NCBI GenBank assembly: GCA_003427395.1
Contig: BFEA01000039.1
Coordinates: forward strand, 1,575,774-1,623,984
DNA from: Chara braunii
Taxonomy: Eukaryota > Plantae > Charophyceae
Direction: 5' to 3'
Length of the DNA: 48,211 nt
The stretch's first letter is position 1. Every line of letters begins with the position of its first letter. A model generated the notes under the pieces. The model did not search any database, was not told the origin of the DNA, and saw nothing but the letters and a program-made list of their open reading frames with translations. Below are positions 4,314 to 36,698 of this stretch, in pieces. The translations under genes were made by a program, and so were the position numbers.

Positions 4314-4733
4314 TCAGTCGCGTAGCTCGTTCCTTATGCTCGTCCTCACTCCGCACTCGGTAATGGAAGCCTTTTGATTGGTAACGCTCGAGCGACAACA
4401 ATCGTTACACAGTGTGTTAGGCCAATGGGGTGCCACTGCCGTCCATGGAATGGCAATCAATTCATTAAACGACAATAGCAGCAAATAAGGCGGAAAATGT
4501 GTATCGATAATGACAAAGCCAGCACCAACAAATCCTGAGCACCGAGTTTCGGGGGGGAAATAGTATCGGCCGCCGATCTTGGCGACGACTTCTCGTACGT
4601 CCCACTCGCATACACGTGTCCTTTTCTCGTTGTACGGGAAGGGACGTGGCGAGGATACGAGAGGCCGACGCCCAATCGGGTTGAGGCCGTCGGTCCACAT
4701 GGCAATCCGATCAACTGCAAGAGTCGGTCTCAA
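4314..4733 (-). CDS. Conserved unknown protein inside element A (first ATG ~4700)
   Basis: GFVIIDTHFPPYLLLLSFNELIAIPWTAVAPHWPNTLCNDC aligns without gaps to the B and C ORFs. Confidence 0.65.
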   Translation of the reverse strand: MRPTLAVDRIAMWTDGLNPIGRRPLVSSPRPFPYNEKRTRVCEWDVREVVAKIGGRYYFPPETRCSGFVGAGFVIIDTHFPPYLLLLSFNELIAIPWTAVAPHWPNTLCNDCCRSSVTNQKASITECGVRTSIRNELRD

Positions 4734-4864
4734 TCATTTATCGTTAATCCGACTGTCGTGATGATCGAAAATACACAACCTATCAATCGGGTTTTTCCGG
4801 TCGTCGCCTTTATCCGCTTTAGACATGCGAGGTGAAGTGAGAGCACTCCTTTATTTCCCCAAGG

Positions 4865-4866
<2 letters not shown>

Positions 4867-4938
<72 letters not shown>
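4867..4938. repeat. (AG)n microsatellite (~36 units) within element A
   Basis: Read directly. Confidence 0.95.
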
Positions 4939-4941
<3 letters not shown>

Positions 4942-7779
4942 CGAAATGATCTATGGGTCTCTCCAAGAAGTTTTCATAAGGAAACCGTGGGGACAGTATT
5001 CTCATCAGGTGGGACACAACCCACTGCATGCAGGTCGCACGTGGCGCCCTTCTTCCTTCTGAGAAGATAGATCGCCTTTCGGGTTTTGCGTAGCGAGGGC
5101 AAGCTGCAGATGGTATGCGTAGTGTATTCTCAATTGAAGATCCCAGGGTATTTTCCCCGCGATCACATCATCGACAGATCTGAACACTCTAGCACTCTCG
5201 AACAAAATCCCAACATCATTGCCCTTGCCGATAACTCAACCCCACAACAACTCGTCGACCTAATAAAAGACCAGTCCTTCAACGACAATTTGCATTTGCG
5301 GTTTCTCATCGCGGAAGGTGCAAAAATGACAGCCATGCATGCATCATTCGGTTCTCCGTGTGCTTCGCGCCCCTGCCCCGTCATTCCATGGTTAATCAAA
5401 ACACCGGCCCATCAGGCAACCATTTAATGACAAACATACATAGTCATTCATATCGTAATGTAGGTGGAAAGAAGAAGTGCGAAATGAATGAAATAGATGA
5501 AAATTACACAGAAATCCGAAGATGAAAAGAACTTCCGACTTAACTGTCGTGGAGCTGTACTCACTCCAAAGAAAGATTCCAGACTAGGAGGCGCATCCGC
5601 CGTAAAGTTCCATCATGGCCCCAGGCCATTCATCCACCCAACTCTGACCACTATCCTTATACCTGCACCGACAATCTCGGTCGTCGCATACCACCTTCCA
5701 CCATCGCGATCGTCACCCTCGCCAACTTAGTTTCTGCGCGAGCTTGCCCCGATTCCGCAATCCGTTGTGGCGATCAGGCGCACACCCAACCAGTCTACAG
5801 TCAGCCCGTCAGGACTTTTCGATCCGCATTGTACACATACCATCTAGCCACTGCTTCCCGGAAGCTGGCTGACGAGTTGAGAGAGAGATTTACGGATGCG
5901 CATGCGGATTTTATAGTTGCGAGAAGGGAGATAGATGCGGAGAAAGATGAAGAATTGGGGAGAGGAAGGAGAGGGAGGGTTTGAGGGTAATCGTCCGTCG
6001 AAAGCCATGTTGATACCTCGCAGTCCTATCTCGGCCAATCGAAATCGTCACGTAGTAGGGATTTCCTCTTACACGGCGCTTCTCCTTGGCTAGATGGGGA
6101 AAAGAGAGGATCGACCGGGTTTTCGAGCGCAGGATTTAGAGCGGGAAGAAGAAGGGTGCGAAGGATAGCGCGAAACAGGTCCAAGATTTAGATGATCAAG
6201 AAAGAGAAAAAGAGCACGCGCGGGGAAGGAGAGAGAAAAACAGTTACAGGGGGAGGAAGCGAGAAAGCATGAGCGCGCGAGGGAGGGCGCTGAGAGGAGC
6301 GTGAGAAGGACGGAGGAGGGAGCTCGTATGCATGGCGCCGAGCATCAAAATGGGCACCGAGACAGTTGCAGTTTTTCCAAGCCCTATGCTAATTCAAAAA
6401 TTGAAATCACCATATCCTTGCGCAAAGTAGGCACAGGAAAAGAAAGAAAGTCTTACGTCTATCCACATTCCTACAAAATTCCCTGAGTTTTCCACGTTGA
6501 GGCCGAGAACATTCATGCGTAAAAGGACACGTCGAGTTCCGTTAATTTTGGAATTTTTAACCGTCGAGCCAAATTCCGAGTGCGCTCGCTAAGGCGTGCG
6601 TAATTCCCATGCATTTCCAAATTACAAAAAAGGACGAAATTTCAAAAATCACTAGTGCTGACAACGATACAGGTCTCAGCGAGGTACCTTTAATCGAAAA
6701 ACAGAGAGGGGTTTTTTGGGGCCGAGCAAGACACATCTTGATTCAAAAGAAACAAGGGGAGGGGAGGGGTCCGGAAGATGGTGCGGGCCTGGAAACTGGT
6801 AAGTCACAGGGGGGTTCTAGTCATTGGATATGGGTCTAGTATCTGCAGTGGGTTCAGGTTGGTTGGATAGGGTGTCATTGGGTGCAGTTCCTACTGACAT
6901 CCGGATGTAACTATCTAGTGGCCATATATTGGGACCTGTGGTACATTGTCTGGGCCTGGCGTCCGAAGTTCCCGTTCGACCAGGTCGTCCGATTCCGCTT
7001 CCACCCGGGCTGGGCAGCTTATCAGCCCTGGTGCCTATCACTGCTGTTCGCTCCAAGTTGCCTACCCAATGGTAGGGCAATGGTCCTGAGTGCTGGTCAC
7101 ACTGAGGTGGGATAGTGGGATAGGGGGTGCACTAGGAGTATTGACGTGAGCATGGGATGGGAGGTGGTCTCATATTCCTGGACAGCCATGGCTCACAGCT
7201 CCAAGTGATCACTGTGCACTCAGTGACTGGCCGTTACAACACCTTGGACTTTTCATTAAAAAAAAAAAAAAAAAAACGCCACAACCACATCTTCTCATAT
7301 CACCTCCCCTTGTCCACATTGATCGACAAAACCGAAGCCAAGCAGTTGAAGTGGGGGTGAGGGGTGCGGGAGAGGACCTACGCAGCCCGTCTGTCATCAT
7401 AGTCACATCCGAGTTCTCTCCTGTCACCATCCCTTGGTGGCCTGTGACGCCCAAAACCTCACGCCCAGCGCGACTTCCTGATCGGAGTAGGATGTGGGTC
7501 TGGAAGTGCGAAAAGGGGTGTGCCAAAGATTTTTGGGAAAGTGGGGGTGGAGTCCCAGGTTGGAACTGGGATCTCTTATGGCAAAGTTTTTCGGGGGCAC
7601 AAGTGCAATTTGGCGGAGAGGGCGGACCGCCCTTGGTCATAAGGCAGATGGCATGCACGGGTCACTCAAAGTCGGGCGAGCCATTGGTTCCGAGGACGGC
7701 GGTTTGTGGGAAGGTCCCTTCGGGGTAGGTGGGTTTCCGATGAGTCAGGTCATCAGAAATTGCCACGTGGCGCCGGTCG

Positions 7780-8241
7780 TCACGCGTTTGGGTTAGGCCT
7801 CCGGGTTTCCAGGGTTCTCGGATCGCCGCGTCGTCTGCAATTTCCGCAGGGTGTGCTGGGCCAGTATGGGGCTATGGCCTTCCACGGGACGATGCTGAGT
7901 TGGTGATACGGAAGAAGAAGACGGAAGGTAGGAAAACTGGTGGAGATAACGACAAATTCGGGGTTAGTGAAGTAGTGGGTGTGGTCGTGAGTGGGGAAAT
8001 CAGAGCACCGGGGGTCGCTAGTGGTGGCGCAATGAGACTCCCTAGGACACAGTCGGTTCTCGGTTAGGCAAGGGTATCTCTGTCGGAGGATTTCGTTTAT
8101 CCAAAGGATGAAGTAGTCCGGGTCGTACAACAACGACTCCGAGCTCTCTGAGTGTGTCATTATATCATCGCAGAGCTGTGAGATGCCTAAGAGAGGGTCT
8201 GTGTCGATTGCGATCACCGCGTGCGAGCACGTGCAGGCCAC
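7780..8241 (-). CDS. Conserved unknown protein inside element B
   Basis: EFVVISTSFPTFRLLLPYHQLSIVPWKAIAPYWPSTPCGNC. Confidence 0.65.
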   Translation of the reverse strand: MACTCSHAVIAIDTDPLLGISQLCDDIMTHSESSESLLYDPDYFILWINEILRQRYPCLTENRLCPRESHCATTSDPRCSDFPTHDHTHYFTNPEFVVISTSFPTFRLLLPYHQLSIVPWKAIAPYWPSTPCGNCRRRGDPRTLETRRPNPNA

Positions 8242-9407
8242 ACGAATGAAGTCGTGCTTACTCGTGTTCGTTCAGGATGACTTCTCCGTCGCGGACCCTG
8301 GATGGCCGAGTCCAATCAGACAGTGCTGCTGCAATCAATGGTCCTTTTAGGGATTTGACGAATCGACGCACGGGGGTACGTGTAAATGCGCAACTCAGAT
8401 CACGTTTACACGTGTCCTCGCGCGGCGTTCGCTAGGGCAGACATCCGACTGTCTAATCACTCCGTAATTTTTGATCATGCAAGATGCAACAACCACAATA
8501 GCTCAATCAAAAGATAAGCAAAAACGAGAACAGGATTATCGATTGCGCAAAATTCCTATCCTACTCATGAGTGCATCAAATGCAGTAAACAAGGTCAAAG
8601 ACAACGATCTAATAGGATATCAAAAAACCAAACATGACATTCATACATTCATTCATTCAGCAACACACACACAAATGCAGTAAACAAGGTCAAACCCAAC
8701 TCCAGGTTCCGAAAAACAAAAACGGGCAAATCGTCCAAAGCCGAAATCAAAATTATGTACACGAGATAGGAGGGAGATAAGATAAAAGAAACAGCAAAAC
8801 CGCGTCCATCAACCTCAACTCCCTCCTCCTCTCTCTCTCTCTCTCTACGATGCGGACAGTCCGTCGTCGCGCACCTACCCACGAAGCCGTCACCCCGGTT
8901 AGTCCTCCCGCACCCATCAGGTTCGCCCACGCCCACAGTTCGTCGTGGCCCGCGTCAACCCTGCGCGTTTGGCACCAGCTCGTCGGGTCAACCGACTCTT
9001 GCTCTACTCACCTCTTACTTCGCTCGTGTGCCGACCCTCTCTGATCGTGCAACCCCGAGCTTCCAACAGCTGGTTAAGAGAGCTAACTAATTGCGCCGCT
9101 GAAATTTATAGCGTGCATGCATGCGCGAGGAACACGGAATTACCAAGACTTAGAGGGAGGGGTGGGGAGGGATTGCCCACGTATGCATGGCCGGTGTCGA
9201 CCGATAGAAGGGGTCTGCCGGCACGCCGTCCGAACCCTATGCCTCGCGCCGCGTTTGTCACCCGCGCGAGGGTCGGTCGGGGCTCATGTAACTTGCACAA
9301 AACTTGTCAGTCCACATCAACAAATACAAGTACCGTAGACGACCGTGACCAATGCGAGAAGGAACTCATGAAACACTGTCTGGCAGAAATAAAAGAAGTA
9401 GTTGCAT

Positions 9408-9650
9408 TCAGTCCAAAACAATGGGATGTGAAACACTCGTTCCGGCCTCAGCTGTACACCTCGCTCCTGTGGCTGGGAAGTCCGTCTGAGTCCCTACGGA
9501 CCTAGTCAACAAACGTCGCCTAATCCTCCTCCCGATTGGGTGTCGCCTGTACCGTGCACGTCGATCCCAAGGGACTGTGCTCGAACTCTCAGTGTCAGAA
9601 GTAGCCTCCCTCGCCCATCGGGGCCAAAGCTCCAGATCGACCGTGACCAT
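9408..9650 (-). CDS. LTR-internal 80-aa ORF with Arg-rich patch and RSVGTQTD motif (3' LTR copy)
   Basis: Strong start context actATGg; intact in both LTRs; 4 of the 6 inter-LTR differences are synonymous. Confidence 0.4.
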   Translation of the reverse strand: MVTVDLELWPRWAREATSDTESSSTVPWDRRARYRRHPIGRRIRRRLLTRSVGTQTDFPATGARCTAEAGTSVSHPIVLD

Positions 9651-9659
9651 AGTTCGGGT

Positions 9660-9825
9660 GTACCCCTTCGGAAAGCCACTCCACGAAAGTCCCTCTTCGG
9701 AAAACCTGCGTCCTGAAAGTACCGCTCGATAAGCCCCCTTCGGACGTACCCCTTCGGAAAGCCCACTTCGCGAAAGTACCCCTTCGGAAAGCCTGCTTCA
9801 CGAAAGTACCCGCTCGAGAAGCCCC
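9660..9825. repeat. ~15-bp-period (30-bp higher-order) tandem array in the LTR, running into the N block; copy at 25035-25200
   Basis: gtaccccttcggaaa / gcccacttcgcgaaa / gtaccccttcggaaa / gcctgcttcacgaaa. Confidence 0.85.
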
Positions 9826-10625
9826 NNNNNNNNNNNNNNNNNNNNNNNNNNNNNNNNNNNNNNNNNNNNNNNNNNNNNNNNNNNNNNNNNNNNNNNNNNN
9901 NNNNNNNNNNNNNNNNNNNNNNNNNNNNNNNNNNNNNNNNNNNNNNNNNNNNNNNNNNNNNNNNNNNNNNNNNNNNNNNNNNNNNNNNNNNNNNNNNNNN
10001 NNNNNNNNNNNNNNNNNNNNNNNNNNNNNNNNNNNNNNNNNNNNNNNNNNNNNNNNNNNNNNNNNNNNNNNNNNNNNNNNNNNNNNNNNNNNNNNNNNNN
10101 NNNNNNNNNNNNNNNNNNNNNNNNNNNNNNNNNNNNNNNNNNNNNNNNNNNNNNNNNNNNNNNNNNNNNNNNNNNNNNNNNNNNNNNNNNNNNNNNNNNN
10201 NNNNNNNNNNNNNNNNNNNNNNNNNNNNNNNNNNNNNNNNNNNNNNNNNNNNNNNNNNNNNNNNNNNNNNNNNNNNNNNNNNNNNNNNNNNNNNNNNNNN
10301 NNNNNNNNNNNNNNNNNNNNNNNNNNNNNNNNNNNNNNNNNNNNNNNNNNNNNNNNNNNNNNNNNNNNNNNNNNNNNNNNNNNNNNNNNNNNNNNNNNNN
10401 NNNNNNNNNNNNNNNNNNNNNNNNNNNNNNNNNNNNNNNNNNNNNNNNNNNNNNNNNNNNNNNNNNNNNNNNNNNNNNNNNNNNNNNNNNNNNNNNNNNN
10501 NNNNNNNNNNNNNNNNNNNNNNNNNNNNNNNNNNNNNNNNNNNNNNNNNNNNNNNNNNNNNNNNNNNNNNNNNNNNNNNNNNNNNNNNNNNNNNNNNNNN
10601 NNNNNNNNNNNNNNNNNNNNNNNNN
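9826..10625. other. 800-N gap or mask inside the 3' LTR
   Basis: Unreadable; starts 631 nt from the + strand LTR start. Confidence 0.99.
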
Positions 10626-11204
10626 GACTCAGTCTGGTGTCCCAATCGGTGCCCAACAGCTCAGTTCGATCCCGGGTCCCAATCTGCATCCGAGAGGTCT
10701 GCTCAATCCGCTGTCCCAACCTGCGTCCAAGTGCCCGGTCCGGCTCGGTATCCGAATCCGTGCCCAAAAGTCCCGCTTTACTTGATGAGCCACGTCCGAC
10801 CAAGAGGGCAGTTCATTCCGGCGATCCGAAGGCATGCCCAAAAGTGCCGCCTTGAGTGATACTCGGGTGCCACAGATCGCCTGTACCTGGTCTGTGTCTG
10901 ACGCCCGATTCACAGTGCCCCAGCCGAGCGCTAACATGTGCGCTGGCGCGAACTGGCTCACGTGCCCGCCTACCCTTTGGATCCCCCTGCTGTCCCTGAT
11001 GTGCAGCGCGTAAGAAAGCACCACGGGCGCACGGCACCTTACCTGCTCCGACTAGGAGTGCGCTGGTGCGTGCGCGGCTTCCTGCCCGTCCTGGCCCATC
11101 CCACGCAAGTGCTCGCAGGTGCGCACGATTGCCCTCACATGAGCGCACGCATGCGTGGCAGCTCCGCAACTCATCCCCCCTTGGCGCGGGTGCGCGCAGA
11201 TGCT

Positions 11205-11660
11205 CAGTGTGTGTGTGTGTGTGAGTGGTGACGCGCTGGCGATCCACCTACGCGCGCGTCATAGCGCACTCGCACGCCCCCCCCCTTCGCTGTCAGCTTG
11301 TGCAGGCACACCGGTGCGCGAGAATGCACACGTGTGTGTACGTGGATGTGCGCGCGTGTGCACGCGGGTCCACGGAAGTGTTCGCGAGGGTGCGCGCGGG
11401 TCCACGGAAGTGTCCCCGAGGGAGCGCGCTGATGTGCACAGGTATGCGCGCGTGTGCGTGGGAGTGTGCGTGCGTGTGCACGTGGATGTGCACGTGTGTG
11501 CGCGTGGGTCCGCGGAAGTGTTCGCGAGGGTGCGCGCGGGTCCGCTGAAGTGTCCCCGAGGGAGCGTGCTGATGTGCACAGGTATGCGCGCCTATGCGTG
11601 CGGGTGCGAGGAAGTGTGCGCGCGTGTGCGCTCGGGCGCGCGCAGGTCTCCGCGCGCATG
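11205..11660. repeat. GC-rich LTR segment: (TG)n, alternating purine-pyrimidine tracts and a 140-bp tandem duplication with 30-bp subunits; copy at ~26582-27065
   Basis: ggaagtgttcgcgagg at 11374 and 11514; the (TG)n run is longer in the 5' LTR. Confidence 0.8.
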
Positions 11661-12655
11661 TGCGGGTGCTCCCCTTTACTCTGTCCGGCCGAGCGCACGT
11701 GCGCCAGGGTGCGCGAGCGCCTGAGTGGGTGCATGCGAATCTCGAGCGCCCATCTCCCGGTGCGTCTGGCTCGCCTGTCCTTACTTGCGCTTCTCTCCGC
11801 GCGTGTCCCCATCCCGTTCGTCTGTATCATGCGCCTGAAGTCTCTGACCGCCTGTCTCCAGCGTGCGAGAAGTCTCCGTGCTCCTCTTCGTGTGTGGCCG
11901 CCTGACTCCGCATGTCCCGAACGCCCCATGCCTGGGCCCGGTTGGGCTTAAGTACTCCGCCGGGCCCTTCCCACAAGTGCGTGTGTGTGTGCCACGGCCT
12001 CCAGTGCACCGAGGCTGCGGAACACTTGCAGCGCCTCGGTACCGTGCCTGCGCCCGGGCCTGATTGGGCCCCCGAAAGGCCACTGGCGCACAAGGCCTTC
12101 TCGCAGGGAACTGGGCCCTCTGCAGCGGCCTGGTACCATGGCTAGTCCCGAGCCTGTCTCAGGCCTGCCGGGGCCTAGGCGGTCCCCACGCAGCCGTGGT
12201 GTCGTTCTTAGGGAAAAATCCAAACTGCCCCGTAAGTGAAAATTGGACCCCTCATTCAATTGGCCTAGCCAGGCCCCGCGTCCTGGCGGGACCGCCCCTT
12301 CGGAGGAACACTCAACCGGCCCAATGGGTCTCTTGCTCGCAGTGCCGGCCTGCGTCATGGTTAGTGAGTCGCGGCCGGATAAAGTAGGCTCCTTGATCGC
12401 TGTGTCGGCCAGCCTCACGGTCGGTGTGTCCCGGTAACGTGAAATAACGTCGAGCATGGTCACCGGCGCCCCATTCTTCGCCGTGTCGTCCCACCGCATG
12501 GTCGGTAATTGTTGGTAACCGTGTCGGTCCCAGTGTTGGCCTGCCTCATAGTTGATGAGGCCCGGCCAGGTAGACTACCGTTGAGCGAGGGTCTCGTCGT
12601 GTGCCCTCGGAAAGGAAGTAAAGGGCGGCGTAGTATTGGAGCCGCCCAACAGCAG

Positions 12656-12673
12656 CCCCCCCCCCCCATTCTC
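12656..12673 (-). promoter_or_regulatory. Polypurine tract
   Basis: Minus strand GAGAATG12, 4 nt before the 3' LTR. Confidence 0.8.
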
Positions 12674-13028
12674 GACGTCCTCGGCGAGCGAGTATTGGGA
12701 TTTGAAGGGAGAAAATTCTGCAAAAGACGGATGACTCGTAATCTCTACCCATCAACCCAAGATCCTCCTTTCTGTCGTGGTTGGATGCGTTTCTTTTGTT
12801 TTTCTTTCTTGGTTGACTTTCTTTTAGTGCCCTTCGTTTTGACGCCTAAGCGCTTGTCTCGTGGAGTGCATCTAACATGCCGACGGTGGTTGTTTTTTGT
12901 GTTTTCTTTTGTCAGGGCATTTTTGATGACTTGTTTAGGTTTTTTGTTTTTCTCCTTTTTTGTCGCCGCCAGCTTTTTGATCTCGGTCTTCGTGTTTTTG
13001 GTGTGTTTGCGCTGGATATGTCGGACCC

Positions 13029-16000
13029 CTAGAAGTTTGTGTTGTGTTTTTTTTTAAGATTGGAGGATTCTGGTACTTGAGAAGTGATTTGTGCGGCCGG
13101 CTTTAGTGCATGCCGATTGGAGGATTCCCCTACTTCGGAGGTGGTTGGTGTTGTGGGTTCTTCTAAGGACTCATCCTTCTTTTTACCTTTTTTTGGGTGC
13201 GTATGGGCGTGATTTTTCTGCCTGATTTTTTCCGTGTGTGGAATATTTTCTGTTCGGTCTTTAAATACTTTAAGACGGGCGTCAGACACCGGTTCCTTCC
13301 ATCTTGTGCTGTCTAATTCCTCTATTAAGTAGGCTCCGCCTTCTAGTCTTTTGACCACTCTACAGGGCCCCATCCATCTGTTTGCTAGCTTCCCTGTCCA
13401 TGTTCTCTCTAATGAGGAGTTATAGAGGAAGACGAGGCTCCCTGTTGGTATCCCTTCTTGCCTGACGCGAAGGTTCCTATCCCATCTTTCTTTCTCTTTT
13501 CCTCTCTGGATCTTTAATTTGTCTATGGTGTCTAGGATGTTATCCTGAAGAGTTTCGGCTATTTGTTTGATTCTTGCGGCCAACAACTGTTCTCTAGTGG
13601 AGATCTCTTCCCAGTCAATCGTTTGCCAAGAGTCGATATGAAATTCTATAGGTAAGGGACAATGGCATCCAAACCATAATGTATAAGGCGGATATCCTGT
13701 AGTTGAGCGAACCGTAATGTTATCTGCCCAGACGGCGAATTTGAAATATTTTGGCCAGTTATTCTCCTTTCCTTCGCACCATTTAGTGAGCGCGTTGACT
13801 AGAGACTGGTGCCCTCTTTCTACAGGAGCGTTAGTTTGGGGATGATATGTTGTGGATAGCGATACTCGTATTCCCGCTTTTTGGAGCAATTCTTGGACTT
13901 TCTTAGCCATAAACTCTGATCCCCTATCCATGACAATTTTGTCAATGCAGCCGTAGCGAGTGATATATTCAGTCAAATAGCCACTAACTGCTTTACCTGT
14001 TTTTTGACGTAGTGGTCATGCCTCCACGAATCCAGTCAAGTCGTCTCTAATGTCCATGATGTAATTCATTCCTCCTTCTCCCTTGGGCATCTTAACTAGG
14101 TCTAAGTGCACTTTCTGGCCTATTGTTGTGGGATAGGAAGGAAATAAGGGTTCTTTATATTTAACTACCGCTCTCTTCTGGCATTCCACGCATGTCAGAC
14201 AGTATGATTCTACGTCCTTATATAGGTCGTCCCAGCAGTAGAGGTTCCTAATTTTTTCAAAAGTTCCTTTTATTCCTCTATGTCCTCTGACGATGCCATC
14301 GTGAAGTTCCACTATTATATCTCGACGCTCGTCCTCATCACAGACGACTCTCATTGGCATTCCATTTTTAGGTGGTCTTTTAAAGAAGTGTCCTGCCTTG
14401 AGGCAATATTGTTGAGCTTCCTTCCTAAGCTTGTCATCTAATTCGATTTCCCCAATAAGATAACACCCTATCTTATGATATTTGCCAATGTATAGATTTT
14501 CAAGAAACAAGGAAGTTCCTCCTGCAACGGACTCTATTTTTAATGAGTTTAAGTCCATTTGTAAAAATTTGTCAATACCACTAGGCGACCCTAGATCTCC
14601 CTCTTCTAGAGGGATTCGCGAGAGACCATCAACAACTGAGTTCTTAGCTCCGGATATTCGCTCTACTAGGTAGTCAAACATCCTTATATGCATGAGTCAT
14701 CTGGTGACCGTTGGATCTGTTAATGAGAAGTCTTTTTGTAAGACAGCTGCCATCGTCGTCGGATCGACCCGCAGTACGAACCTTCGTCCGTAAATATAAT
14801 GTCGGAAAATATTTAAACAATGTAAGACTCCTATAACTTCTTTCTTAAATTGTGAGTAGTTCCTTTCGGTGGCGTTTAAGGTTTTACTCTCGAATCTGAG
14901 AGACCTTTCATTACCGGCTTGATCCTTTTGAGTCACGACTCCACCAACAGAGGCAAGTCCCGCATCCGTACATACGACGAATGGGCGGTTTTCCTCGTCT
15001 TCGAAGTAAGGTACTCCAAGGACTTGACCTCCTTCCTTAAACTCATCTTTTAACGTTCTTACTGTATCCTCTTGTTCACTCGTCCATTGTCATTCTACTC
15101 CCTTGCGCAAGAGCTTTCGTAGGGGTTCGGCTTTTGCAGCATAGCCTTTTATGAAATTCCTCTTGAATCCGACCACTCCTAAAAACTGACGTATGTCATT
15201 AATATGTCTGAGGGGAGTTGGCCATTTCATAAGTTTTTCTAACTTTGCCGGATCTGGGCGTCTGCCATCCTTGTCGCAGATGTAACATAATATCTTTATA
15301 GAAGATACTGCCCATCTGTTTTTTGTTCCACTGACCGTAAGGTTTGCATCCTCTAACTTCACTAGTACTTTCTTGATATCCTCTGCGTCGGTGGCTATGA
15401 ATTTCCTCAGTCTCGGTCTTACCTCTGTCTCATCTTTATCGTATAGTCTTTTGATCGGAAAGTCATCTAGGAAGACCTCTACCAGATTTGGTATGAGTTC
15501 GCCGAGAACGGCAACCATGACTCTCTGAAAGACTGCAACACCGTTAGTCCACCCCATAGATACCACCGTCATTTGAACTAAGCCTAACGGTGTGTGCAAC
15601 TCAGTTAGATGTCGGTCTCTGTAGTCTAACGGTATCTCATCATATCCCGAAAAAAAGTCGCAGACTAAGTAAATTGAACGTCCTGCTGAGACTTCAGATA
15701 GGAGATCCGCGTTTGGGATGGACCCAACGTCCCTCACTGTGACCTTATTTGTCTTCTGCAAGTCTTGTATCCATCGTAGTTTGCCGTTTGATTTCCCTAT
15801 GAAGAACCAACGATTCACGTAGGCGCTCTCACAAGGTTCTGCTACAAATGTCCTTATCTTCTCCTTGTGGAAGTCTACTATCATCTCCTTTTTCTTTTGT
15901 GCACACTTCCATCCTGCATCGTTCCATGGAGTGTGAGGGACCGTATAGATTCTTGCAGGTTTAACATATCGTGGATCTATTCGCCCTTTTTCTGCGTCAC

Positions 16001-22470: not shown

Positions 22471-22544
22471 TGTTCGGGTTGGGGCAAGAACCCTTCTCTA
22501 GCCAGTCGAAGCGAGACCACTACTGACCTATATTCCCTGTCATA

Positions 22545-25025: not shown

Positions 25026-25200
25026 AGTTCGGGTGTACCCCTTCGGAAAGCTACTCCACGAAAGTCCCTCTTCGGAAAGCCTGCTTCCTGAAAGTACCGC
25101 TCGAGAAGCCCCCTTCGGACGTACCCCTTCGGAAAGCCCACTTCGCGAAAGTACCCCTTCGGAAAGCCTGCTTCACGAAAGTACCCGCTCGAGAAGCCCC

Positions 25201-26000
25201 NNNNNNNNNNNNNNNNNNNNNNNNNNNNNNNNNNNNNNNNNNNNNNNNNNNNNNNNNNNNNNNNNNNNNNNNNNNNNNNNNNNNNNNNNNNNNNNNNNNN
25301 NNNNNNNNNNNNNNNNNNNNNNNNNNNNNNNNNNNNNNNNNNNNNNNNNNNNNNNNNNNNNNNNNNNNNNNNNNNNNNNNNNNNNNNNNNNNNNNNNNNN
25401 NNNNNNNNNNNNNNNNNNNNNNNNNNNNNNNNNNNNNNNNNNNNNNNNNNNNNNNNNNNNNNNNNNNNNNNNNNNNNNNNNNNNNNNNNNNNNNNNNNNN
25501 NNNNNNNNNNNNNNNNNNNNNNNNNNNNNNNNNNNNNNNNNNNNNNNNNNNNNNNNNNNNNNNNNNNNNNNNNNNNNNNNNNNNNNNNNNNNNNNNNNNN
25601 NNNNNNNNNNNNNNNNNNNNNNNNNNNNNNNNNNNNNNNNNNNNNNNNNNNNNNNNNNNNNNNNNNNNNNNNNNNNNNNNNNNNNNNNNNNNNNNNNNNN
25701 NNNNNNNNNNNNNNNNNNNNNNNNNNNNNNNNNNNNNNNNNNNNNNNNNNNNNNNNNNNNNNNNNNNNNNNNNNNNNNNNNNNNNNNNNNNNNNNNNNNN
25801 NNNNNNNNNNNNNNNNNNNNNNNNNNNNNNNNNNNNNNNNNNNNNNNNNNNNNNNNNNNNNNNNNNNNNNNNNNNNNNNNNNNNNNNNNNNNNNNNNNNN
25901 NNNNNNNNNNNNNNNNNNNNNNNNNNNNNNNNNNNNNNNNNNNNNNNNNNNNNNNNNNNNNNNNNNNNNNNNNNNNNNNNNNNNNNNNNNNNNNNNNNNN
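25201..26000. other. 800-N gap or mask inside the 5' LTR
   Basis: Same length, offset and flanks as 9826-10625. Confidence 0.99.
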
Positions 26001-26578
26001 GACTCAGTCTGGTGTCCCAATCGGTGCCCAACAGCTCAGTTCGATCCCGGGTCCCAATCTGCATCCGAGAGGTCTTCTCAATCCGCTGTCCCAACCAGCG
26101 TCCAAGTGCCCGGTCCGGCTCGGTATCCCAATCCGTGCCCAAAAGTCCCACTTCACTTGATGAGCCACGTCCAGCCAAGAGGGCAGTTCATTCCGGCGAT
26201 CCGAAGGCGTGCCCAAAAGTGTCGCCTTGAGTGATACTCGGGTGCCACAGATCGCCCGTACCTGGTCTGTGTCTGATGCCCGATTCAAAATGCCCCAGCC
26301 AAGCGCTAACGTGTGCGCTGGCGCGAACTGGCTCAGGTGCCCGCCTACCCTTTGGATCCCCCTGCTGTCCCTGATGTGCAGCGCGTAAGAAAGCGCCCCG
26401 GGCGCACGGCACCTTACCTGCTCCGACTAGGAGTGCGCTGGTGCGTGCGCGGCTTCCTGCCCGTCCTGGCCCATCCCACACAAGTGCTCGCAGGTGCCCA
26501 CGATTGCCCTCACATGAGCGCACGCATGCGTGGTAGCTCCGCAACTCATCCCCCCTTGGCGCGGGTGCGCGCAGATAC

Positions 26579-26628
<50 letters not shown>

Positions 26629-29204
26629 GTGACGCGTTGGCGATCCACCTACGCGCGCGTCATAGTGCACTCGCACGCCCCCCCCCTTCGCTGTCAGCGT
26701 GTGCAGGCACACCGGTGCGCGAGAATGTGCGTGTGTGTGTACGTGGATCTGCGCACATGTGCACGCGGGTCCACGGAAGTGTTTGCGAGGGTGCGCGCGG
26801 GTCCGTGGAAGTGTCCCCGAGAGAGCGCGCTGATGTGCACAGGTATGCGCGCGTGTGCGCGGGAGTGTGCGTGCGTGTGCACGTGGATGTGCACGTGTGT
26901 GCGCGCGGGTCCGCGGAAGTGTTCGCGAGGGTGCGCGCGGGTCCACGAAAGTGTCCCCGAGGGAGCGCGCTGATGTGCACAGGTATGCGCGCGTGTGCAT
27001 GCGGGTGTGCGGAAGTGTGCGCGTGTGTGCGCTCGGGCGCGCGCAGGTCTCCGCGCGCGTGTGTGGGTGCTCCCCTCTACTCCGTCCAGCGGAGCTCACG
27101 TGCGCCAGGGTGCGCGAGCTCCTGCGTGGGTGCATGCGAATCTCGAGCGCCCGTCTCCCGGCGCGTCTTGCTCGCCTGTCCTTACTTGCGCTTCTCTCCG
27201 CGCGTGTCCCCGTCCCGTTCGTCTGTATCGTGCGCATGAAGTCTCTGACCGCCTGTCTCCAGCGTGCGAGAAGTCCCCGTGCTCCTCTTCGTGCGTGGCC
27301 GAAAGTCCTGTGCGCCTGACTCCGCATGTCCCGAATGCCCCATGCCTGGGCCCGGTTGGGCTTAAGTACTCCGCCGGGCCCTTCCCACAAGTGCGTGTGT
27401 GTGTGCCACGGCCTCCGGTGCACCGAGGCTGCGGAACACTTGCAGCGCCTCGGTACCGTGCCTGCGCCTGGGCCTGATTGGGCCTCCGAAAGGCCACTGG
27501 CGGACAAGGCCTTCTCGTAGGGAACTGGGCCCTCTGCAGCGGCCTGGTACCATGGCTAGTCCCGAGCCTGTCTCAGGCCTGCCTGGGCCTAGGCGGTCCC
27601 CACGCAGCCGTGGTGTCGTTCTTAGGGAAAAATCCAGACGGCCCCGTTAGTGAAAATTGGACCCCTCATTCAATTGGCCTAGCCGGGCCCCGCGTCCTGG
27701 CGGGACCGCCCCTTCGGAGGAACACTCAACCGGCCCAACGGGTCTCTTGCTCGCAGTGCCGGCCTGCGTCATGGTTAGTGAGTCGCGGCCGGATAAAGTA
27801 GGCTCCTTGATCGCAGTGTCGGCCAGCTTCACGATCGGTGTGTCCCGGTAACGTGAAATAACGTCGAGCATGGTCACCGCCGCCCCGTTCTTCGTCGTGT
27901 CGTCCCCCACCGCTTGGTCGGTAATTGTTGGTAACCGTGTCGGTCCCAGTGTTGGCCCGCCTCATAGTTGATGAGGCCCAGCCAGGTAGAATACCATTGA
28001 GCGAGGGTCTTGTCGCGTGCCCTCGGAAAGGAAGTAAAGGGCGGCGTAGTATTGGAGCCGCCGGACACCGGAACGCGGCGTGGGGGACGTAGCCGCTCTC
28101 CACACATCGATCCGATCATGCAGACCGTGGCTACCAAAAATGCAGCAAAAGAAAGAGAAGAGGGGCGGAAAGGACGAAGAACAAGAAGAAGAATACAATT
28201 AGAATGGCGCCAATCCAAAATTACAGTTACACACCCGATTAAAGGCACCGACTAATCAGAATTTCGTTGCAGCCGCATAAAGAAGTGCGTAAGCAAAAGG
28301 CGTCGCGCGGCAAAAGAAAGTCCTAATTACAAAATTCCTAAATTCCTATCTAATGCGAAAAAGCAAAAAGCACAAGTGCCGGAGAGAAAGTCCAAAATTC
28401 CGAGAGCCATCGGGGCTCGATAAAATTCGAAAAGAAAATTTCAAAAAGAACGAAGCAAAATTCCTGCGCGATGTCCGCGCCTAAAAAGTTCCGAAACCGA
28501 AACAAAAGAAACGACGTCAACATTTATTAATTGCGGGCTTGTCGGTGCGCCAGTCATCCACCCGACCAATCAATAGCCCGTCTCGAGACACACCCAGCTC
28601 CGAACTCAGCCATCCGAAAAGAATCGACGGAAAAGACGAAGAAGCGAGGGTACTGATGCAATTTCCCATCCATCCCAATCTGCCGTAATTGGCCCAACCT
28701 TCCCAGCTTAGGACCCTTCATTGCTATTGCGCAGAAAGTCGCGCGCTACATTAAGTGGTTCGTCACAGGCCTCCTGTAATGTTGGAGACATATAACCTGC
28801 ACGAACGGAGGGGAACCTCACAAATCTGCCCGTATGGAAACTTCTTTCCATGTTTTTCAGTTCTCTGGGAGGAGCTATGGGTTCTGTTTTTTTGTGTTTT
28901 TTTAAACTTTTATAATTTTTTTTTGCCTGTTAGTTAAACCACTAGTACATCCAGGCCTCGTTTTGTCGAGGCGGGAAAGGACTGCAGACCAAGCTTTGCC
29001 GAAGAGCCAGCGTAACTTTTGCTTTTGGTTTTGCCTGGCATCACCAGCCTTTTTGGTCCGGTGGCGCCCAGCCTCCGAAGAACGTGGTATAGGTTATGTT
29101 GCGCACTACAGGCTGCAAGACCGTGCCCTAGCTGTGTGTCAGTAGAAGGGCAATAGAAAACGGAAATTGTCTTTTGCTTCGCTGCTAACATTGAGTGAGA
29201 TCAA

Positions 29205-29276
29205 GCAGCCTAGCTCAGTTGGTTAGGCACACAAATGGCATTCAGGAGGCCGTGGGTTCAATCCCCACTGACCGCC
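29205..29276 (+). other. tRNA-like sequence (pseudo-tRNA or SINE head)
   Basis: TAGCTCAGTTGG A-box and GGTTCAATCCC B-box at tRNA spacing; poor acceptor and anticodon stems; no TSD found. Confidence 0.6.
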
Positions 29277-30061: not shown

Positions 30062-30321
30062 AATTGACCAGTACACTTCCCAGCCATTTTTTCGGAGTCG
30101 CGGTGTGCGTGCTGCCTCGTCTCTCGGGAAATATCGGGGCGTTGTTTTGCGACACATCCGTCCAGGCAAAACAGGCAGGTCACATGCAAGGCCTGTTTTG
30201 CCCATTAGGCCTGGATGGATGTCCAGCGAAAAGGTGCCCTGGTATTTCTCACCCAACGAGGCAGGCTGCACGCAGCAACTTAAAGAAAAAATGGCTAGGA
30301 AACATACTGGTCTGATCAATT
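30062..30321. mobile_element. Fold-back MITE-like element (~250 bp imperfect palindrome)
   Basis: accagtacacttcccagccatttttt / aaaaaatggctaggaaacatactggt; tgcctcgt / acgaggca; acatccgtccaggc / gcctggatggatgt. Confidence 0.7.
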
Positions 30322-30375: not shown

Positions 30376-30735
30376 ATTCCTATAAAAGCTTCCAAAAAAA
30401 ACTTCTGATTCTCGAATTTTTTTCCTATAAAAGCTTTTTAAAATATTCTCGAAATAATTTCCTATAAAAGCTTCTAAAAAACTTCTGATTCTACAACTCG
30501 AAATATTTTCCGAATAAAAGCTTCAAAAAACTTCTGCTTCTCGAAATATTTTCCTACAAAAGCTTCTAAAAATATTTTCGAAATAATTTCATATAAAAGC
30601 TTCTAAGAAATTTCTGAAAAGGTTCTTCAAATAAATTCCTATAGAAGTTCTATAAACAAAATATTTTTCTATAAAAGCTTCTAAGAAATTTCTGAAAAGA
30701 TTCTTCAAATAAATTCCTATGGAAGTTCTATAAAC
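30376..30735. repeat. AT-rich minisatellite (~30-45-bp units, about 10 copies)
   Basis: Recurrent ttcctataaaagcttctaaaaa...tctcgaaata. Confidence 0.85.
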
Positions 30736-31329
30736 TCAGATAATTTTGATTTTGATCAAGGAAGGAGGGGGGGAATTAAAAAGGGGAGGAGGGGAGGAGG
30801 AAAGGTGGCCTTCAATCAGAGGATGGATGTCGGGGAAGGTGAGTTGGTCAGGAGGACGAGGCTGGGATGACATGGGCCGGTGCTGGAGCTTGGCTCTGTG
30901 ACCCAGGGGGTAGCTTGAGGCCCATGGAATTATGCCGAGGGTGGAAGGCATAACCACATCGTCCAACACAAGCGGCGCCGGGGTTCTGACCCTGTAACCT
31001 GTGTAGGGGTTTGTCGCTATGGGAATTGCCGAGGGAGGAAGGCACTTCCTATCCGACAGAACTAGGTTGGTCGGTACTGGGGAAGGTTGCGGTGCCCTGT
31101 TACCCATGCAGAAGGGGGTATGAGACCAAGTGTGCTCTGGCTCGAGGACCGAAAGTCGAGACCGACGGCTCCTTTGTTGAGGGGGGGACTTTAGGATGGT
31201 TGGTATTTAGTTTTGACCCCTTTTTTTTTTCTTTTTACAGATGGTTGTTCGGGGGTCTTAAGAATGTTTTTGGGCTCTCGGGATCCCTAACAACTTTTCT
31301 CAGGTGGTTTTTGATGCTGTTATACTCAG

Positions 31330-32040
31330 GGACCTGTGGCTGCTCGATGTCAGAACGATGCTGGCTGGAGCTGGGGTGTTACCCTGTGACCTGTGATGCA
31401 GGAGCATGAGGCCTGGTAGAGAGATCTGGGGATGCTTAGGGGTGGGCATCCTACGGAACAGCTAAGGGTTGCTGCTGGGACGACGCTGGTCGGAGCTGGG
31501 GTGAGTTGTGTCACCATGTAACCTAGCAGGATGTGGGGTGTGAGACCTCGAAGAGCTCGGCAGGGAGTAGGACAGGGTTGAAAGGCCTCAGAAGGAGCGT
31601 TAGGGATTCCAAGGGTTTCTTAGCATTTCTAGGACCCGCCAGGCCTTTTTTATGTTTTCAAATTACGAATATTTACGTAGTTAAATCCAATTCTCAAAAA
31701 AAGGGGGTAGTCTGTTCTGTCCTTAAAAAGTCTTCTGGATCCTGGGGTTTCCTGGCAATCTCTTCTAGGTAGTTTCAAGGCTGTAATACTCGGTGACCTA
31801 AGGCTGTTCGACGCCAGAACGACGCTGGCCGGTGCTGGGGTGTTGCCCTGTAACCTGTTGATGCAGGGGCATGAGGCCTGGTAGAGAGATCTGGGGGTGC
31901 TTTGGGGAGGCATCCCACGGGACAACCAAGGGTTGCTGCTGAGACGACGCTGGCCGGAGTTGGGGTGAGTTGTGTTGCCCTGTAACCCAGCAGGATGGGG
32001 GGTGTGAGGCCTGGAAGCTCGGCAGGGAATACGACAATGT
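31330..32040. repeat. ~240-bp direct repeat (about 31340-31575 and 31805-32040) with internal sub-repeats; degenerate copies at 30840-31010
   Basis: gacgctggccgg.gctggggtg...ccctgtaacc...catgaggcctggtagagagatctgggg occurs twice. Confidence 0.8.
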
Positions 32041-33302
32041 TGGAGATCCTTGGAAGGATCTGTTAGGGATTTTGCGGGTTTGGGGGCTTTTTTAGGACTT
32101 TTGCAGTGTATTCCCGTACCTTTTCTGAGTAACGGGAAGGTAAGGGATCGAGAGAGAAAGGTATCATGCATCCTGCTAGTGAAGGGGCTAGCTGGTAGGA
32201 CAGAAATAGGGCATAGCAGCAGTAGAGATGGTGGCTTTGCTGCAGTAAGTCTTGCCGGAGTGGGGTGAGAAGGACTGTTGGTGGATTCCTGAGTCTTCTT
32301 CTGGTTTTTGTTTATCTTTGAATGTTCCTTACAAAAAAGCTCTGAAGTAGCCTTAGTAAAAAAAAAAAAAAAAAAAAAAAGGGATGCCACGCGCCCGTCT
32401 GCGATTAGGAGACGTTTTTCTAAGGTTTCCATCTTTCCATTGGTTCTGCAATTTGGGCAAAGGACGGTAAGGCCGGTTGTGCGGCCTCTGATCCAAGGCG
32501 GACAAAGCGGATGCAGGCCAGATGTCAGGTTGGCAGACTCTGACAAGGAGATTGCTTACTGCGGTTCCGAGGATAAGCGCCCTCCGGCAGGACAAGTGAT
32601 TGTTGTTCCTTCCTTGTTGACCCCGGTACCACAAGCAGCATGCACCGGAGCAGGAATCGATGGTTCAGGACCTCCAGCCATTGCGGCTATTGTTTCCCAA
32701 AGATAGTTCTGTACAGGTAAAGGCAGGACCAGAGTCCTTGGAGTACCAGCAGTAGCAGCTACCGGCCCCTAGTAGTAGTACCCTGGTACGGTCCAAGGCT
32801 GGACTGGTGTGCTTGGAGTACCAGCCACTGCAGCTTCACGCCACAATTGTAGTTTGGTACGGGCCCAGGCGGGACAGCTGCATCTCGCTTATGCAAGACA
32901 GCCAATAACATTCCAGGACGCGTGAAATTCCGTTCTCCATGAGGTAGTTACACCCTGCCCAGCCTACTATCTTCACCCAAGTAAAATGCCCGGTCATTCT
33001 TGTTGCATCTGGTCTGCAAGCTGCCCCAAATATACCTATAATGCCCCGGGTTCTCTATACGGATGAAGATGGTAGGTGTACCTGACAATCTCACAATCAC
33101 ACTGGCCTATCTCAGGCGGTTGGGAATTTTGCTACTTAATGTTCAGTCATGGTGCGAGTTTCGGTGTATACTCGCACTACAGTGTAGAAGGACTTCAAGT
33201 TGATCTACCGGTAGCTGCCGATCTGCAATTTTGAGTGCGTAGTGTGACTTGCCCTCAGTCAGAGACAATCAGGGCATACTCTTACAATTGCCAACTGAAG
33301 TA

Positions 33303-33467
33303 GAGTCACAAAAACGAGTAATAATTGCACTATGGGGCGTGATACAGTTTGCAATTGCACTTAGGGCACGGCACCTGGCCAGAAAGATGGGTTGTATACC
33401 TTGCCCGAACTACAATTGCAAACTGTATATTGGCCCATACTGCAATTATAACTCATTTTTGTGACTC
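33303..33467. mobile_element. Fold-back MITE-like hairpin with 66-bp arms and a 33-nt loop
   Basis: gagtcacaaaaacgagtaataattgcactatggg...atacagtttgcaattg...gggca pairs with 33402-33467. Confidence 0.8.
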
Positions 33468-33949
33468 CCTTGTAGTTTCCCCAAAAAAGGAAAAAGAAAG
33501 CCCTGATGATCTTGAATCACCTCTCTCCATTTTGTGGTTGATGTTTTTGGAAATTTGGAAGTCTTGTTAAACCACCAATACTCCCTCGAGTTGTGCTCGT
33601 TAGCGCACTACGATTTCCGGAAACGTACGGGCTACTACAGGAGTGCCCAAATTCATCCGACTAGAAACGTTTCTACTCTTTTTTTTTTCCGTGGCCGATA
33701 GCTGGGCCAAGTACTGGTGGTTTAAGACCCTATCTGTTGAACACGTAGTCAATCGAAGGGGTTGGCAATGGTTTGAACCCAGAAAAATCAGGAGCCATCT
33801 GCTCCCTTCCTCGGCTCACGGTGCGCTTGGCTTATGCTCTGTTGCTGCTAGTGTGCGACGGAGGCTTGCCTTAAGTTTCTGTCAGCTCTGCTTCATGGGT
33901 TATGTGACTGAAGACCTGCAGCATTTGTGTGGCACATGTCCACTGGCTG

Positions 33950-36698
33950 TGTGACGCCCCAACCTCACGCCCCGCGCGACTTCCTGATCGGAGTGGGATG
34001 GGGGCCCGAAAGTGCGAAAAAGGGGTGTGGCAAGGATTTTAGGGTAGTGGGGGTGGCGTTCCAGGTCAGAACTGAAATCTCTTGTGGCAAGCCTCAGGGG
34101 CAGTTATGCAAGATAGCAAGCGCGAACCGTGTCCGACTTTTATGCCTTGCGGGATGTCATCGCCACCCCTGTGAGTTTTGTTGTTGAGGCCGGACTTGGA
34201 TTTGGTGAACCGGCGGAACGCTATGTGTGTCGCGTTGCCTAACCAATCGCCAGCGTCGCTCGTGACAAGCCTCCGAGTCGGACAAAGCGGGCCTCAGGCG
34301 CAGGCTGTGTGCTCGCTGTTCGGCATCAGTCCAGGTTCGTTGAACGAACCCCACGGCTCGGTAATCGCTGTCCTGTTGGCACTTGGAGCACGGGGTTCGA
34401 GGCCAGTAGGGGGCGAGTGCGTGCCACGGGGCCGCCGTCAGGCAGTGAAAAGGCAACACGAGGCGGTAGGGAGCGAAGTCTGTCTCAATGATGACGACAC
34501 CGGGTTCGGCGATGGCGTGGCTTACGTGTGAGCTGGGGAACTGGGAGGGAAAGGGATCGCGCTTAAGGCCCGTTCGATGTCCCACTCACAGACACATTTG
34601 TTTCCCGTCCGAAAGGGGAATTTTTTAGGGTTGGAGCGGGGTTGTGCGAGAAGACAGGCGTTTTCCACTCCCAGTATTCTCGGAACCGGCGGTGTCTCAG
34701 GCTCTCCCAATCCGTGACGTGGAAGGGAGTCCCATTATCCATGCTACCGGAATTTTGCGAGTTTAGACATGGACTCGAGCGCGGGTCTTGTAGACGTGCG
34801 TGTAGGCGATGTCCGTTTTGATCGAGCCTGCACGTATGCGCACGAGACCCTGTTTGCGATCAGTTGGATCGGATCGACTGGCTATCCCTTTGGTCGGGAG
34901 ATCGTCTGATCCATCGTTATGCTAGCCCGTGCGCACGTCAAGAGACAGACATTAGGAAGGCAATCTGTGGGCAATCACACATTGAATCAGCCATCCCACC
35001 AGAGCATACATCAGCCGGGACCACCGAGTGTTCATTAGATTCCCATTTCTGTCCAAAAGGGAACGGGAAACTGACATGCATACTCAGGTATCTATCGTAC
35101 TCATGCATCAATCAAACTCGAGGGCCGTGCAAAACTCCGGAATAGCATAAGCGAGAGATGGACAAGGATTTGCGCATCAAGCCATGTCACCGAGGAAGCC
35201 TACATCATCATAACCCAAACTCACCGGGGTTACGCGCAGACAATCGTCGTGCCCGATCTCACCATACAGCAATGAAACAGGAGTGAGGGGGGAAATCAAA
35301 CCAATCACAAGAAAAGACACGAACGAGGGGTAGTCATGAGCAAAAGAGGACCGACGCCACTTATCAAAACTACATAAGTGAGAAAAAGAAGGACACCATC
35401 CCACACACAAGATCCGAAGGTTGGCAATTCCGTGATATGCATGAGGGGCGCATCCAACCCGAGCGCAGAATGGGGACTAGAAGGCAACGAAATTTGAGTT
35501 AAACTAGTCGTCCAAAGATTGCGCGAGGAGGGGTGAGGGAAGAGCGTGAGTTCATTCCACACACACCATAAGCAAAAAATCCAAAATGATTCGCAAGAAG
35601 ATCGAAACGGCCGTAACAAAATCACCGGTTGAAATCAAAATTTATACAGAGGGTTTGAGAGAGGCATCATCCCACACACACATCTCTCTTTCTGTCCACG
35701 CTACATCACCTCCGATGAGGGCAGTTCGTTGCCTCGCACCAACACCGAGTCGTCACCCCGCTTAGTCGGAGTACACAAGCCAAGTTCGCCCGTGCGTCAC
35801 AGTCCGCCGTGGCCCGCACGTCAACCCCGCCTACACGGCACCAGCTCGTTGGGTCGCCCGACTCACTTCTGCTCATCTTCTCACTTACTTGTTAGCCGAT
35901 CCTCACTGGCCGCGCTAACTTCCAAATTCTGAGAGAGCAAACTAATCGCGCTTGCGAAATTTATAGCGTGCATGCTTGCGCGATGAACCCGGGATTATGC
36001 CTAAGTGAGGGGAAGGGGAAGAGAAGGAAGTGCCTACGCCTGCATGGCCAAGCCGCGGCGTGGGGGACGCAGCCACACTCCATCGATCCGGTCATGCAGT
36101 CGCTCAGGCCAATTAGAGTGGAGGGCGAGGTATGCACGACAAAGGGGAAGAAGGCGGGGAAACACGATAGAATCAAGAAGGAGGAATACAGTTACAATCG
36201 CGCCCGCCAAAAATTACAGTTACATGCAGTATTAAGGGCAGGATACAGTCAGAGCCCGGTTCCCACTGCAGTGAAAGGTGCATGAGCAAGAAGCGAGGCG
36301 CAACAAGATTTCATAGCACCTAAATTCCTAGTCTAAATCCTATTTGCAAAAACAAATTCTGAAAAGCTTTAAAAAAAAACAATTTAAAAAGCCCGTCATC
36401 CGTTGTAAATTTAAAAACGACATTCCCGCGCGCTAATCGCGCCAAAATTCCCATCTCCCACAGCAGAACAAGAAAGAAGTTATGGCAACCGTTATTTATC
36501 GCGCTCACTAAGGCGTGGTCACTCAATCGTCGTCGCAGGACTTTCCCGGCCCTGGTCCCGAAAGCAAAAAAGAAAGAAGCGAGGGTATCCATGCAACTTG
36601 TCCGGCCAACCCCTATCTTCCACCTGACCAACCAGTTGCCAACCCCCAAAGCCGCTTCGCGCAGAAAGTTGTGCGATTGTAGAAAATAGTTCGTCATA
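33950..36698 (-). mobile_element. Solo-LTR-like element C (2749 bp)
   Basis: TGTGACG...CGTCATA ends; GCTG TSD (33946-33949, 36699-36702); both ends homologous to element B. Confidence 0.88.
34157..34710 (-). pseudogene. Conserved unknown protein inside element C (frameshift near 34530)
   Basis: KFPF...CVCEWDI (compare A: PFPY...RVCEWDV), then GVVIIETDFAPYRLVLPFHCLTAAPWHALAPYWPRTPCSKC in a second frame. Confidence 0.65.

Follow-up and report, generated by a model that had tools for sequence, protein, structure and literature searches.

A candidate accessory gene inside probable long terminal repeats of three diverged Chara braunii retrotransposon families

Retroviral long terminal repeats (LTRs) can carry genes: sag of mouse mammary tumour virus (MMTV) and lentiviral nef are coded in U3 and expressed from the 3' LTR by splicing. 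In plants, extra open reading frames (ORFs) occur in many LTR retrotransposons and form a heterogeneous set in which known domains are mostly missing, as far as the accessible parts of PMC6317226 and PMC11963269 describe them. Those called aORF or eORF, including Ogre ORF1, the env-like ORFs of Athila and SIRE and the antisense ORFs of Retand and Grande, flank gag-pol on its 5' or 3' side within the internal region (PMC7264820; accessible parts of PMC6317226 and PMC11963269); some aORF products are nuclear, and aORFs have been proposed to act like retroviral regulators (PMC7264820). ORF0 of the rice Del/Tekay Gypsy elements Retrosat2, RIRE3, RIRE8 and FRetro3 is a separate ORF upstream of gag-pol and apart from the LTR (accessible part of PMC3485330). 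Here we analyze a window of 48,211 nucleotides from the charophyte Chara braunii (the whole stretch of contig BFEA01000039.1 from 1,575,774 to 1,623,984, forward strand), in which three solo-LTR-like elements, A, B and C, each hold a related minus-strand ORF inside the repeat. We are quite confident that this ORF is a real LTR-borne accessory gene. We think it probable on balance that the three elements are LTRs in decay, likely solo ones, from three diverged Chara retrotransposon families, and that the ORF was selected to encode a helper of 130–190 residues that would bind the element's own DNA or RNA.

Three elements with a shared reading frame

The three units measure 2.4–2.9 kb, have TG...CA-type ends and are flanked by 4-bp target duplications. 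Element A lies at 3929–6808 (minus strand, 2880 bp, 6-bp terminal inverted match) between two copies of GGGG, and element C at 33950–36698 (minus strand, 2749 bp) between two copies of GCTG. Element B, between copies of GGCC, spans 7443–28767 in full and ~2450 bp once a nested Gypsy element is subtracted; its 3' (R/U5) part (7443–9194, minus strand) runs to the insertion site of that element, and its 5' (U3) part (28072–28767, minus strand) lies past it. On the plus strand all three start with TGTGACG and end with GTCA(C/T)A; the 5' end of C is TA, not TG, at a point where related contigs differ. As the original prediction held, the ends are conserved and the middles poorly alignable, with DNA-level alignment limited to the ends and one promoter-side segment. 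The target duplications of A, B, C and the nested element are all GC-only or GC-rich, as is the flank consensus beside the end, which suggests a target preference.

All three elements carry a minus-strand TATAAA (5910–5915 in A, 9105–9110 in B, 35960–35965 in C; motif matches only), at 893, 782 and 733 nt, respectively, counted from the right-hand end. This puts the ORF in sense orientation on the R/U5 side, downstream of the putative promoter. The first plausible Met is 720–790 nt from the far end in each (in A, ~1200 nt past the TATAAA), and the ORF ends 200–340 nt before the U5 end. It thus sits 200–790 nt inside an end bounded by the target duplication in all three window elements.

The conserved minus-strand blocks were found where predicted, ~395–610 bp from the left ends, and the ORF limits proposed for A and C hold, while the frame of B runs further, stop to stop, than first given. 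In A the ORF occupies 4314–4733, with its first plausible Met at 4700 and a 54-codon block at 4398–4559; just past the CxxC the frame breaks, and the C-terminal part of the gene, basic and Arg-rich, continues in a second frame (4168–4404). In B it occupies 7780–8271 (Met 8160, block 7837–7998) and has a shorter 3' end than in two B-type relatives. The frame of C (34157–34585, block 34379–34540) has a C-terminal part homologous to the A type and no Met before the block. Upstream parts of this gene lie on the same strand in a second frame (34522–34734), with a break near 34549, and in a third (34563–34859), with a break near 34660, whose Met at 34742 is as far from the element end as those of A and B. 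The upstream FP[YF]...VCEWD motif predicted for A and C is present in both; in C it falls in the second frame, apart from the block, and B also has a counterpart, YPC...LCPRE.

Searches yielded one further A-type and one further B-type copy on contig BFBZ01005442.1 (L001). At L001:1–4047 a B-type LTR is interrupted by an A-type LTR of opposite orientation, and ~530 bp of AT-rich sequence (1980–2510) are inserted just inside the A-type U5. Among the five ORF-bearing DNA copies compared (A, B, C, L001-A and L001-B), only L001-A is unbroken: the frame is broken once in A and twice in C, L001-B has a break and a stop, and B stops before P0001 and L001-B. Open versions are represented by P0004 (173 aa, the unbroken A-type copy from L001) and P0001 (164 aa, an open B-type copy). 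Two Chara gene models, CBR_g17916 and CBR_g19774 (P0002 and P0003), hold the A-type ORF as an exon; CBR_g19774 joins it to Myb/SANT-like and Dcp1 domains, probably through mis-joining of the model or exonization.

Within the gap-free 54-codon block, pairwise amino-acid identity among A, B and C is 23, 25 and 26 of 54. Codon positions 1, 2 and 3 have 22, 31 and 7 of 54 bases unchanged across the three copies (Fisher p=5e-6), and the codons quoted in the original prediction for the shared Ala-Pro pair do differ at third positions. Synonymous sites are at or near saturation (pS 0.65–0.81, pN 0.35–0.39). The summed BLOSUM62 score is 436 in the ORF frame vs -32 to 173 in the other five frames, a value reached by none of 5000 column shuffles scored as the best of six frames (maximum 234), and only the ORF frame is free of stops in all three elements. 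Because the block was picked on protein similarity, the independent test is dN/dS (Nei-Gojobori; saturated bootstrap replicates counted as 0) on the copies found by search. Over 128 codons, A and L001-A differ at 19, 18 and 66 sites by codon position, giving a dN/dS of 0.086 (bootstrap 0.00–0.17) vs 1.6 in shifted sense frames and 0.42–2.5 in antisense registers. For B vs L001-B the differences are 9, 15 and 24 over 94 codons (dN/dS 0.30, 0.16–0.56), and dN/dS is 0.35 (0.12–0.99) over the 44 upstream, N-terminal codons.

The signal is also local. Between A and L001-A, 13 gap-free blocks were compared: the two that are periodic (p<=1e-4) lie over the ORF core and tail, and 11 are non-periodic, including a 54-nt block at the ORF start. 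Among eight listed blocks between B and L001-B, two of which overlap, the ORF block gives p=0.012, and periodicity in the N-terminal block is blurred by the adjoining frame break; between B and C, none of six non-ORF blocks is periodic. Strong codon periodicity is confined to the ORF. U5 regions hold conserved cis signals, and the conservation could in principle belong to a DNA or RNA element in which the frame is an accident; the third-position excess, the saturated synonymous sites, the stops in all other frames and the want of periodicity elsewhere in the LTR refute this, and we give it practically no weight. On these sequence comparisons, the ORF block is evidently under purifying selection.

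Where selection acts is a separate matter. The original prediction had the selected protein persisting in solo LTRs; selection itself is borne out in two families, and the solo copies are decaying. As A and C are frame-broken and only one of the five DNA copies is unbroken, solo copies seem to be free of selection, and we infer that it acts in replicating full-length elements. Within the ORF, C departs from related contigs by six near-fixed changes that fall 0/3/3 on codon positions; the sample is small, and the pattern is the one that drift after insertion would give. A more radical account makes the ORF a relic, either an ORF0-like leader gene or a captured host exon that was absorbed as U5 expanded and has since died in every family, its low dN/dS recording old selection. 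Four of five DNA copies are broken or shortened, no expression is seen over C, and the C break near 34549 may be common within its family. We nevertheless regard this account as very unlikely, given selection within two families separately, including copies 79–82% alike, open copies in two families, and no host homologue among 1.84 billion representatives searched.

Probable LTR identity and the U5 end

For junction evidence, contigs of four DNA runs from one sample (X1–X4) and reads of three RNA runs were mapped on C; junction figures are for the best-supported classes among those listed. Summed contig depth is ~2,000–7,000 over the ORF and up to ~290,000 over the U5 core, vs 10.7 in unique flank; summed depth is not a copy number, and we read it only as high copy, with a U5 core common to many families.

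The conserved U5-like end (minus strand; 33950–34022 in C, 3929–4000 in A, 7443–7520 in B) holds, in order, a short motif resembling the tRNA-Met 3' end, GGCGTGAGG, and a 9–12 base tail ending GCGTCACA. A short motif complementary to a tRNA-Met-type primer site is kept 30 nt inside the end by A, B, C and L001-A. A primer-site class was recovered in which, on the minus strand, GGCGTGAGGT is followed directly by TGGTATCGGAGCC (76, 65, 74 and 68 contigs in X1–X4; 27 reads in X6, an RNA run), one base off the tRNA-Met primer site quoted in the accessible part of PMC3852365. The other junctions lead into unrelated flanks, either after the full U5 end (57 and 78 contigs in X3 and X4) or after a tail length variant (131, 147, 106 and 125 contigs in X1–X4; 39 reads in X6). 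Of the junctions listed, the primer-site class accounts for ~30% in the contigs and 27 of 70 in the reads, and there is no other large class. The U5 att of B and C matches the Del/Tekay type A (ACA at -1 to -3, G at -6 and GGG at -8 to -10, as given in the accessible part of PMC4029996), and that of A and L001-A does so partly, a match that does not settle Gypsy vs Copia. Together, the ends, the 4-bp duplications, the TATAAA motifs and the primer-site class at the U5 end indirectly support an LTR origin, as the original designation of solo LTRs implied; the paired element that would complete it was not seen.

That gap invites a different classification, in which A, B and C are complete non-autonomous TG...CA units moved by a Gypsy-type integrase or a Ginger-like transposase and the ORF is simply internal. 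Tail-bearing ends (33950, 33958) are always joined to unrelated flanks among the classes listed, and GC-rich 4-bp duplications with TGT ends also occur in Ginger1 (accessible part of PMC2836005). We consider this improbable: the terminal inverted match is 6–7 bp, not 40–270, and no transposase ORF is present in A, B or C; the size, TATA position and att-like end suit an LTR, and a tRNA primer site follows the U5 core in the proportions given above.

The two kinds of junction differ in one respect. Copies joined to the primer site lack the last 9–12 bases that are present on all integrated ends (33950–33962, 3929–3940, 7443–7456 and L001:2545–2556). The classes listed in X6 before the junction number 39, 27 and 4 reads; among the classes listed, none of at least 5 reads in X6 has a tail-less end meeting flank, and none combines tail and primer site. 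In standard reverse transcription the stretch next to the primer site is the source of both copies of U5, so a tail found only on 3' LTRs is not expected from it. The arrangement, 5' LTRs without and 3' LTRs with the tail, is seen in consensus rows that possibly mix families, and we regard it as doubtful, if possible. Should the asymmetry hold, it would imply a non-standard step in reverse transcription or integration.

The protein, its expression and its possible role

The gene appears to comprise about 130–190 codons, longer than the block first quoted. The small CxxC protein originally proposed is thus right as to its CxxC block and short as to its length: the protein is roughly three times the quoted block, and in A the homology runs on in the other frame. 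Its motifs follow the order [FY]P[YFC], C-x-[WR]-[DE], FP, the hydrophobic stretch V-I-x-T-x-F-x-P-[YF]-x-L-x-L-P and PW-x-x-x-AP-x-WP-x-T-x-C-x-x-C, and the A and C types continue through a basic tail (pI 10.3) to RD-T/M. The core is rich in Pro and aromatic residues and has three Cys; across A, B and C types, near-invariant columns number 22, with C13, PW, WP, C80 and C83 among them, and the three Cys are conserved in 8/8 (C13), 7/8 (C80) and 8/8 (C83) sequences, L001-B being without C80. No 19-residue stretch exceeds a mean hydropathy of 1.5 in the seven rows reported, the highest value being 1.48 in the core, and hence none resembles a transmembrane segment.

The family had not been recognized in the original prediction, and Pfam, PDB, Atlas and fold searches likewise gave no family, structure or fold match. 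A standard gag/pol domain was sought in particular: Pfam returned no Gag, PR, RT, RH, IN or chromodomain match at E<=1, nor at 10, and the profile searches found no CCHC knuckle or integrase-domain match. Alignment by hhalign with the integrase of the nested Gypsy gave 1.2%; a very distant SH3-like fold is possible. All true homologues found appear to come from the same organism, Chara braunii. This is likely to be a new protein family with no known match.

We propose that transcription from the LTR promoter would make the gene the leading long ORF on the element RNA, probably after splicing of a leader intron. Donor-like sites lie 75–100 nt past the TATAAA in B, C and L001-B (~90–100 nt in B, ~75–100 nt in C), and a YAG precedes the Met by 1–16 nt in all five copies; this motif matching suggests a leader intron ahead of the ORF. 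The Cys-containing core could fold around a metal ion, zinc in the original prediction, with core and basic tail binding nucleic acid, and the protein may act on its own long LTR within the nucleus, either as a trans-activator or by countering silencing, and so promote activity of the element. Given a real gene, such a nuclear self-regulator is the likeliest role, and one that we hold tentatively; the analogies are the nuclear aORF products (PMC7264820) and VANC, an anti-silencing protein of MuDR DNA transposons that resembles MAIN (accessible part of PMC13547354). Because the gene lies within the repeat, a full element would have two copies, and a solo LTR would keep promoter and gene together until broken by mutation.

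The same features can be read for an LTR-borne gene whose product works in the particle, in reverse transcription or in integration, as an RNA chaperone for a very long strong-stop DNA, a packaging factor or an integrase tether. On the inferred genomic RNA no long frame comes before the ORF, strong-stop DNA would be ~2 kb, the basic tail and Cys cluster suit RNA binding, and the U5/primer-site junction is unusual. With no CCHC knuckle or integrase-domain match, this role, the next likeliest, seems to us rather unlikely. Also unlikely, and slightly more so, is a broader picture of a high-copy charophyte lineage that has moved a conserved regulator gene of a new protein family into the transcribed half of its LTR, in which solo LTRs are trans-acting promoter-plus-gene cassettes and the integrating 3' end arises from a 9–12 base tail with no template beside the primer site, a product beyond standard LTR reverse transcription.

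Several observations weigh against selected, LTR-borne genes for a nucleic-acid-binding helper. No paired-LTR element with this ORF was found in the window, in L001 or in the run contigs and reads mapped on C; among the mapped contigs and reads, no single molecule joins primer site and ORF, and no polypurine-tract class appears at the other end of C (65 contigs, agreement 0.38, one merged consensus). The 60-bp U5 core that defines the primer-site class is far commoner than the ORF (summed depth ~290,000 vs 2,000–7,000), making the link of this class to the ORF-bearing families indirect, and its junctions are without the terminal tail. The RNA check for expression, run on C, was negative: over the ORF, depth is 0 in X5 and 0.2–3.3 in X6, on both strands and tracking the DNA profile, and no RNA-supported splice joint occurs on C in the 6% and 12% of the runs read. 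No single column conserves a fourth metal ligand, L001-B is without even C80, and the structure models are unreliable (pLDDT 41 and 46). The C break near 34549 is absent from only 19 contigs (12% of depth), and is therefore not shown to be private to C. Finally, one non-ORF block between B and L001-B also reaches p=0.028.

Surroundings, significance and known systems

The element nested in B is a complete Ty3/Gypsy retrotransposon (9195–28067, minus strand) with gag-PR-RT-RH-IN, LTRs of ~3.5 kb that are 95–97% alike, and a CCGG target duplication; it does not carry the LTR-borne ORF of A, B and C. Its primer site TGGCGCCGTTGCCGGGGA, which we take to be of the tRNA-Asp, Athila-like type, is accompanied by a polypurine tract at ~12655–12672 and by many in-frame stops, and its two LTRs differ at bases 4–5 of the 5' end. 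Between primer site and gag it has ~5 kb of extra sense ORFs (18873–23723, minus strand) with no Pfam match, in which a unit starting [FI]PY recurs in at least three diverged copies (19894–20361, 20731–21261 and 21534–21971); a leader ORF at 22545–22985 is a 92% match to Chara gene model CBR_g46376. Elsewhere in the window are short tandem arrays with periods of ~60, 130 and 464 nt (3621–3925, 30377–30735 and 31277–32098), the first of which stops at the insertion site of A; a MITE-like 165-bp inverted repeat (33303–33467, 69-nt arms, 84% complementary) and another at ~30066–30312; short stretches resembling tRNA-derived, SINE-like heads, judged by eye (3200–3270 and 29205–29275); and a decayed LINE-like element on the plus strand (39294–48030) with zinc knuckle, endonuclease, RT and zf-RVT pieces.

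Annotation treats plant LTRs as non-coding, and the surveys of accessory ORFs cited above cover the internal region, so that a selected gene borne by the LTR would escape them. If real, such a gene is doubled in each element and survives the recombination that removes gag-pol, and solo LTRs need not be inert. The ORF also contaminates host gene models, two in Chara, one of them fused to a Dcp1 domain, and it offers a new protein family for testing conflict between transposable elements and host in a close algal relative of land plants. In full-text literature, with subscription journals mostly outside it, we found no account of conserved ORFs within LTRs of plants or algae, of LTR families in Chara or of such asymmetric ends; the Chara genome paper may describe these repeats.

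Like MMTV sag and nef, the Chara ORF is protein-coding sequence within an LTR; unlike those U3 genes, it lies downstream of the TATA motif on the R/U5 side, and no sequence similarity to them was found. With Ginger1 the elements share TGT termini and a GC-rich 4-bp target duplication, and they have none of its 40–270 bp inverted repeats, CCGG/CCGT targets or transposase (accessible part of PMC2836005). The likeness to VANC concerns only the proposed role of countering silencing of its own family, with no sequence match (accessible part of PMC13547354). Unlike env-like ORFs, the Chara ORF shows no transmembrane segment in the rows reported and is placed in the LTR, not after pol. It resembles aORFs in being a family-wide, lineage-specific accessory gene with protein-level conservation and no database homologues, and differs from them in lying inside the LTR, not in the internal region between LTRs. 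ORF0 of Retrosat2 is the closest known system in position. Both are extra sense ORFs ahead of gag-pol with no assigned function, in elements with LTRs of ~3 kb and many solo LTRs, and ORF0 too has Ka well below Ks; the terminal motifs are also alike, 5'TGTCACACCC...GGGCGTGACA3' in RIRE8 and Retrosat2 and ...GGGGCGTCACA in A, B and C (accessible part of PMC3485330). By the description given there, the Chara ORF is set apart by its place inside the repeat, its retention in solo copies and the 4-bp target duplication. The searches with the Chara ORF brought up no sequence match to ORF0, though no head-to-head comparison was made. Accessory ORFs are thus known in retrotransposons, and the location inside the LTR is the new part.

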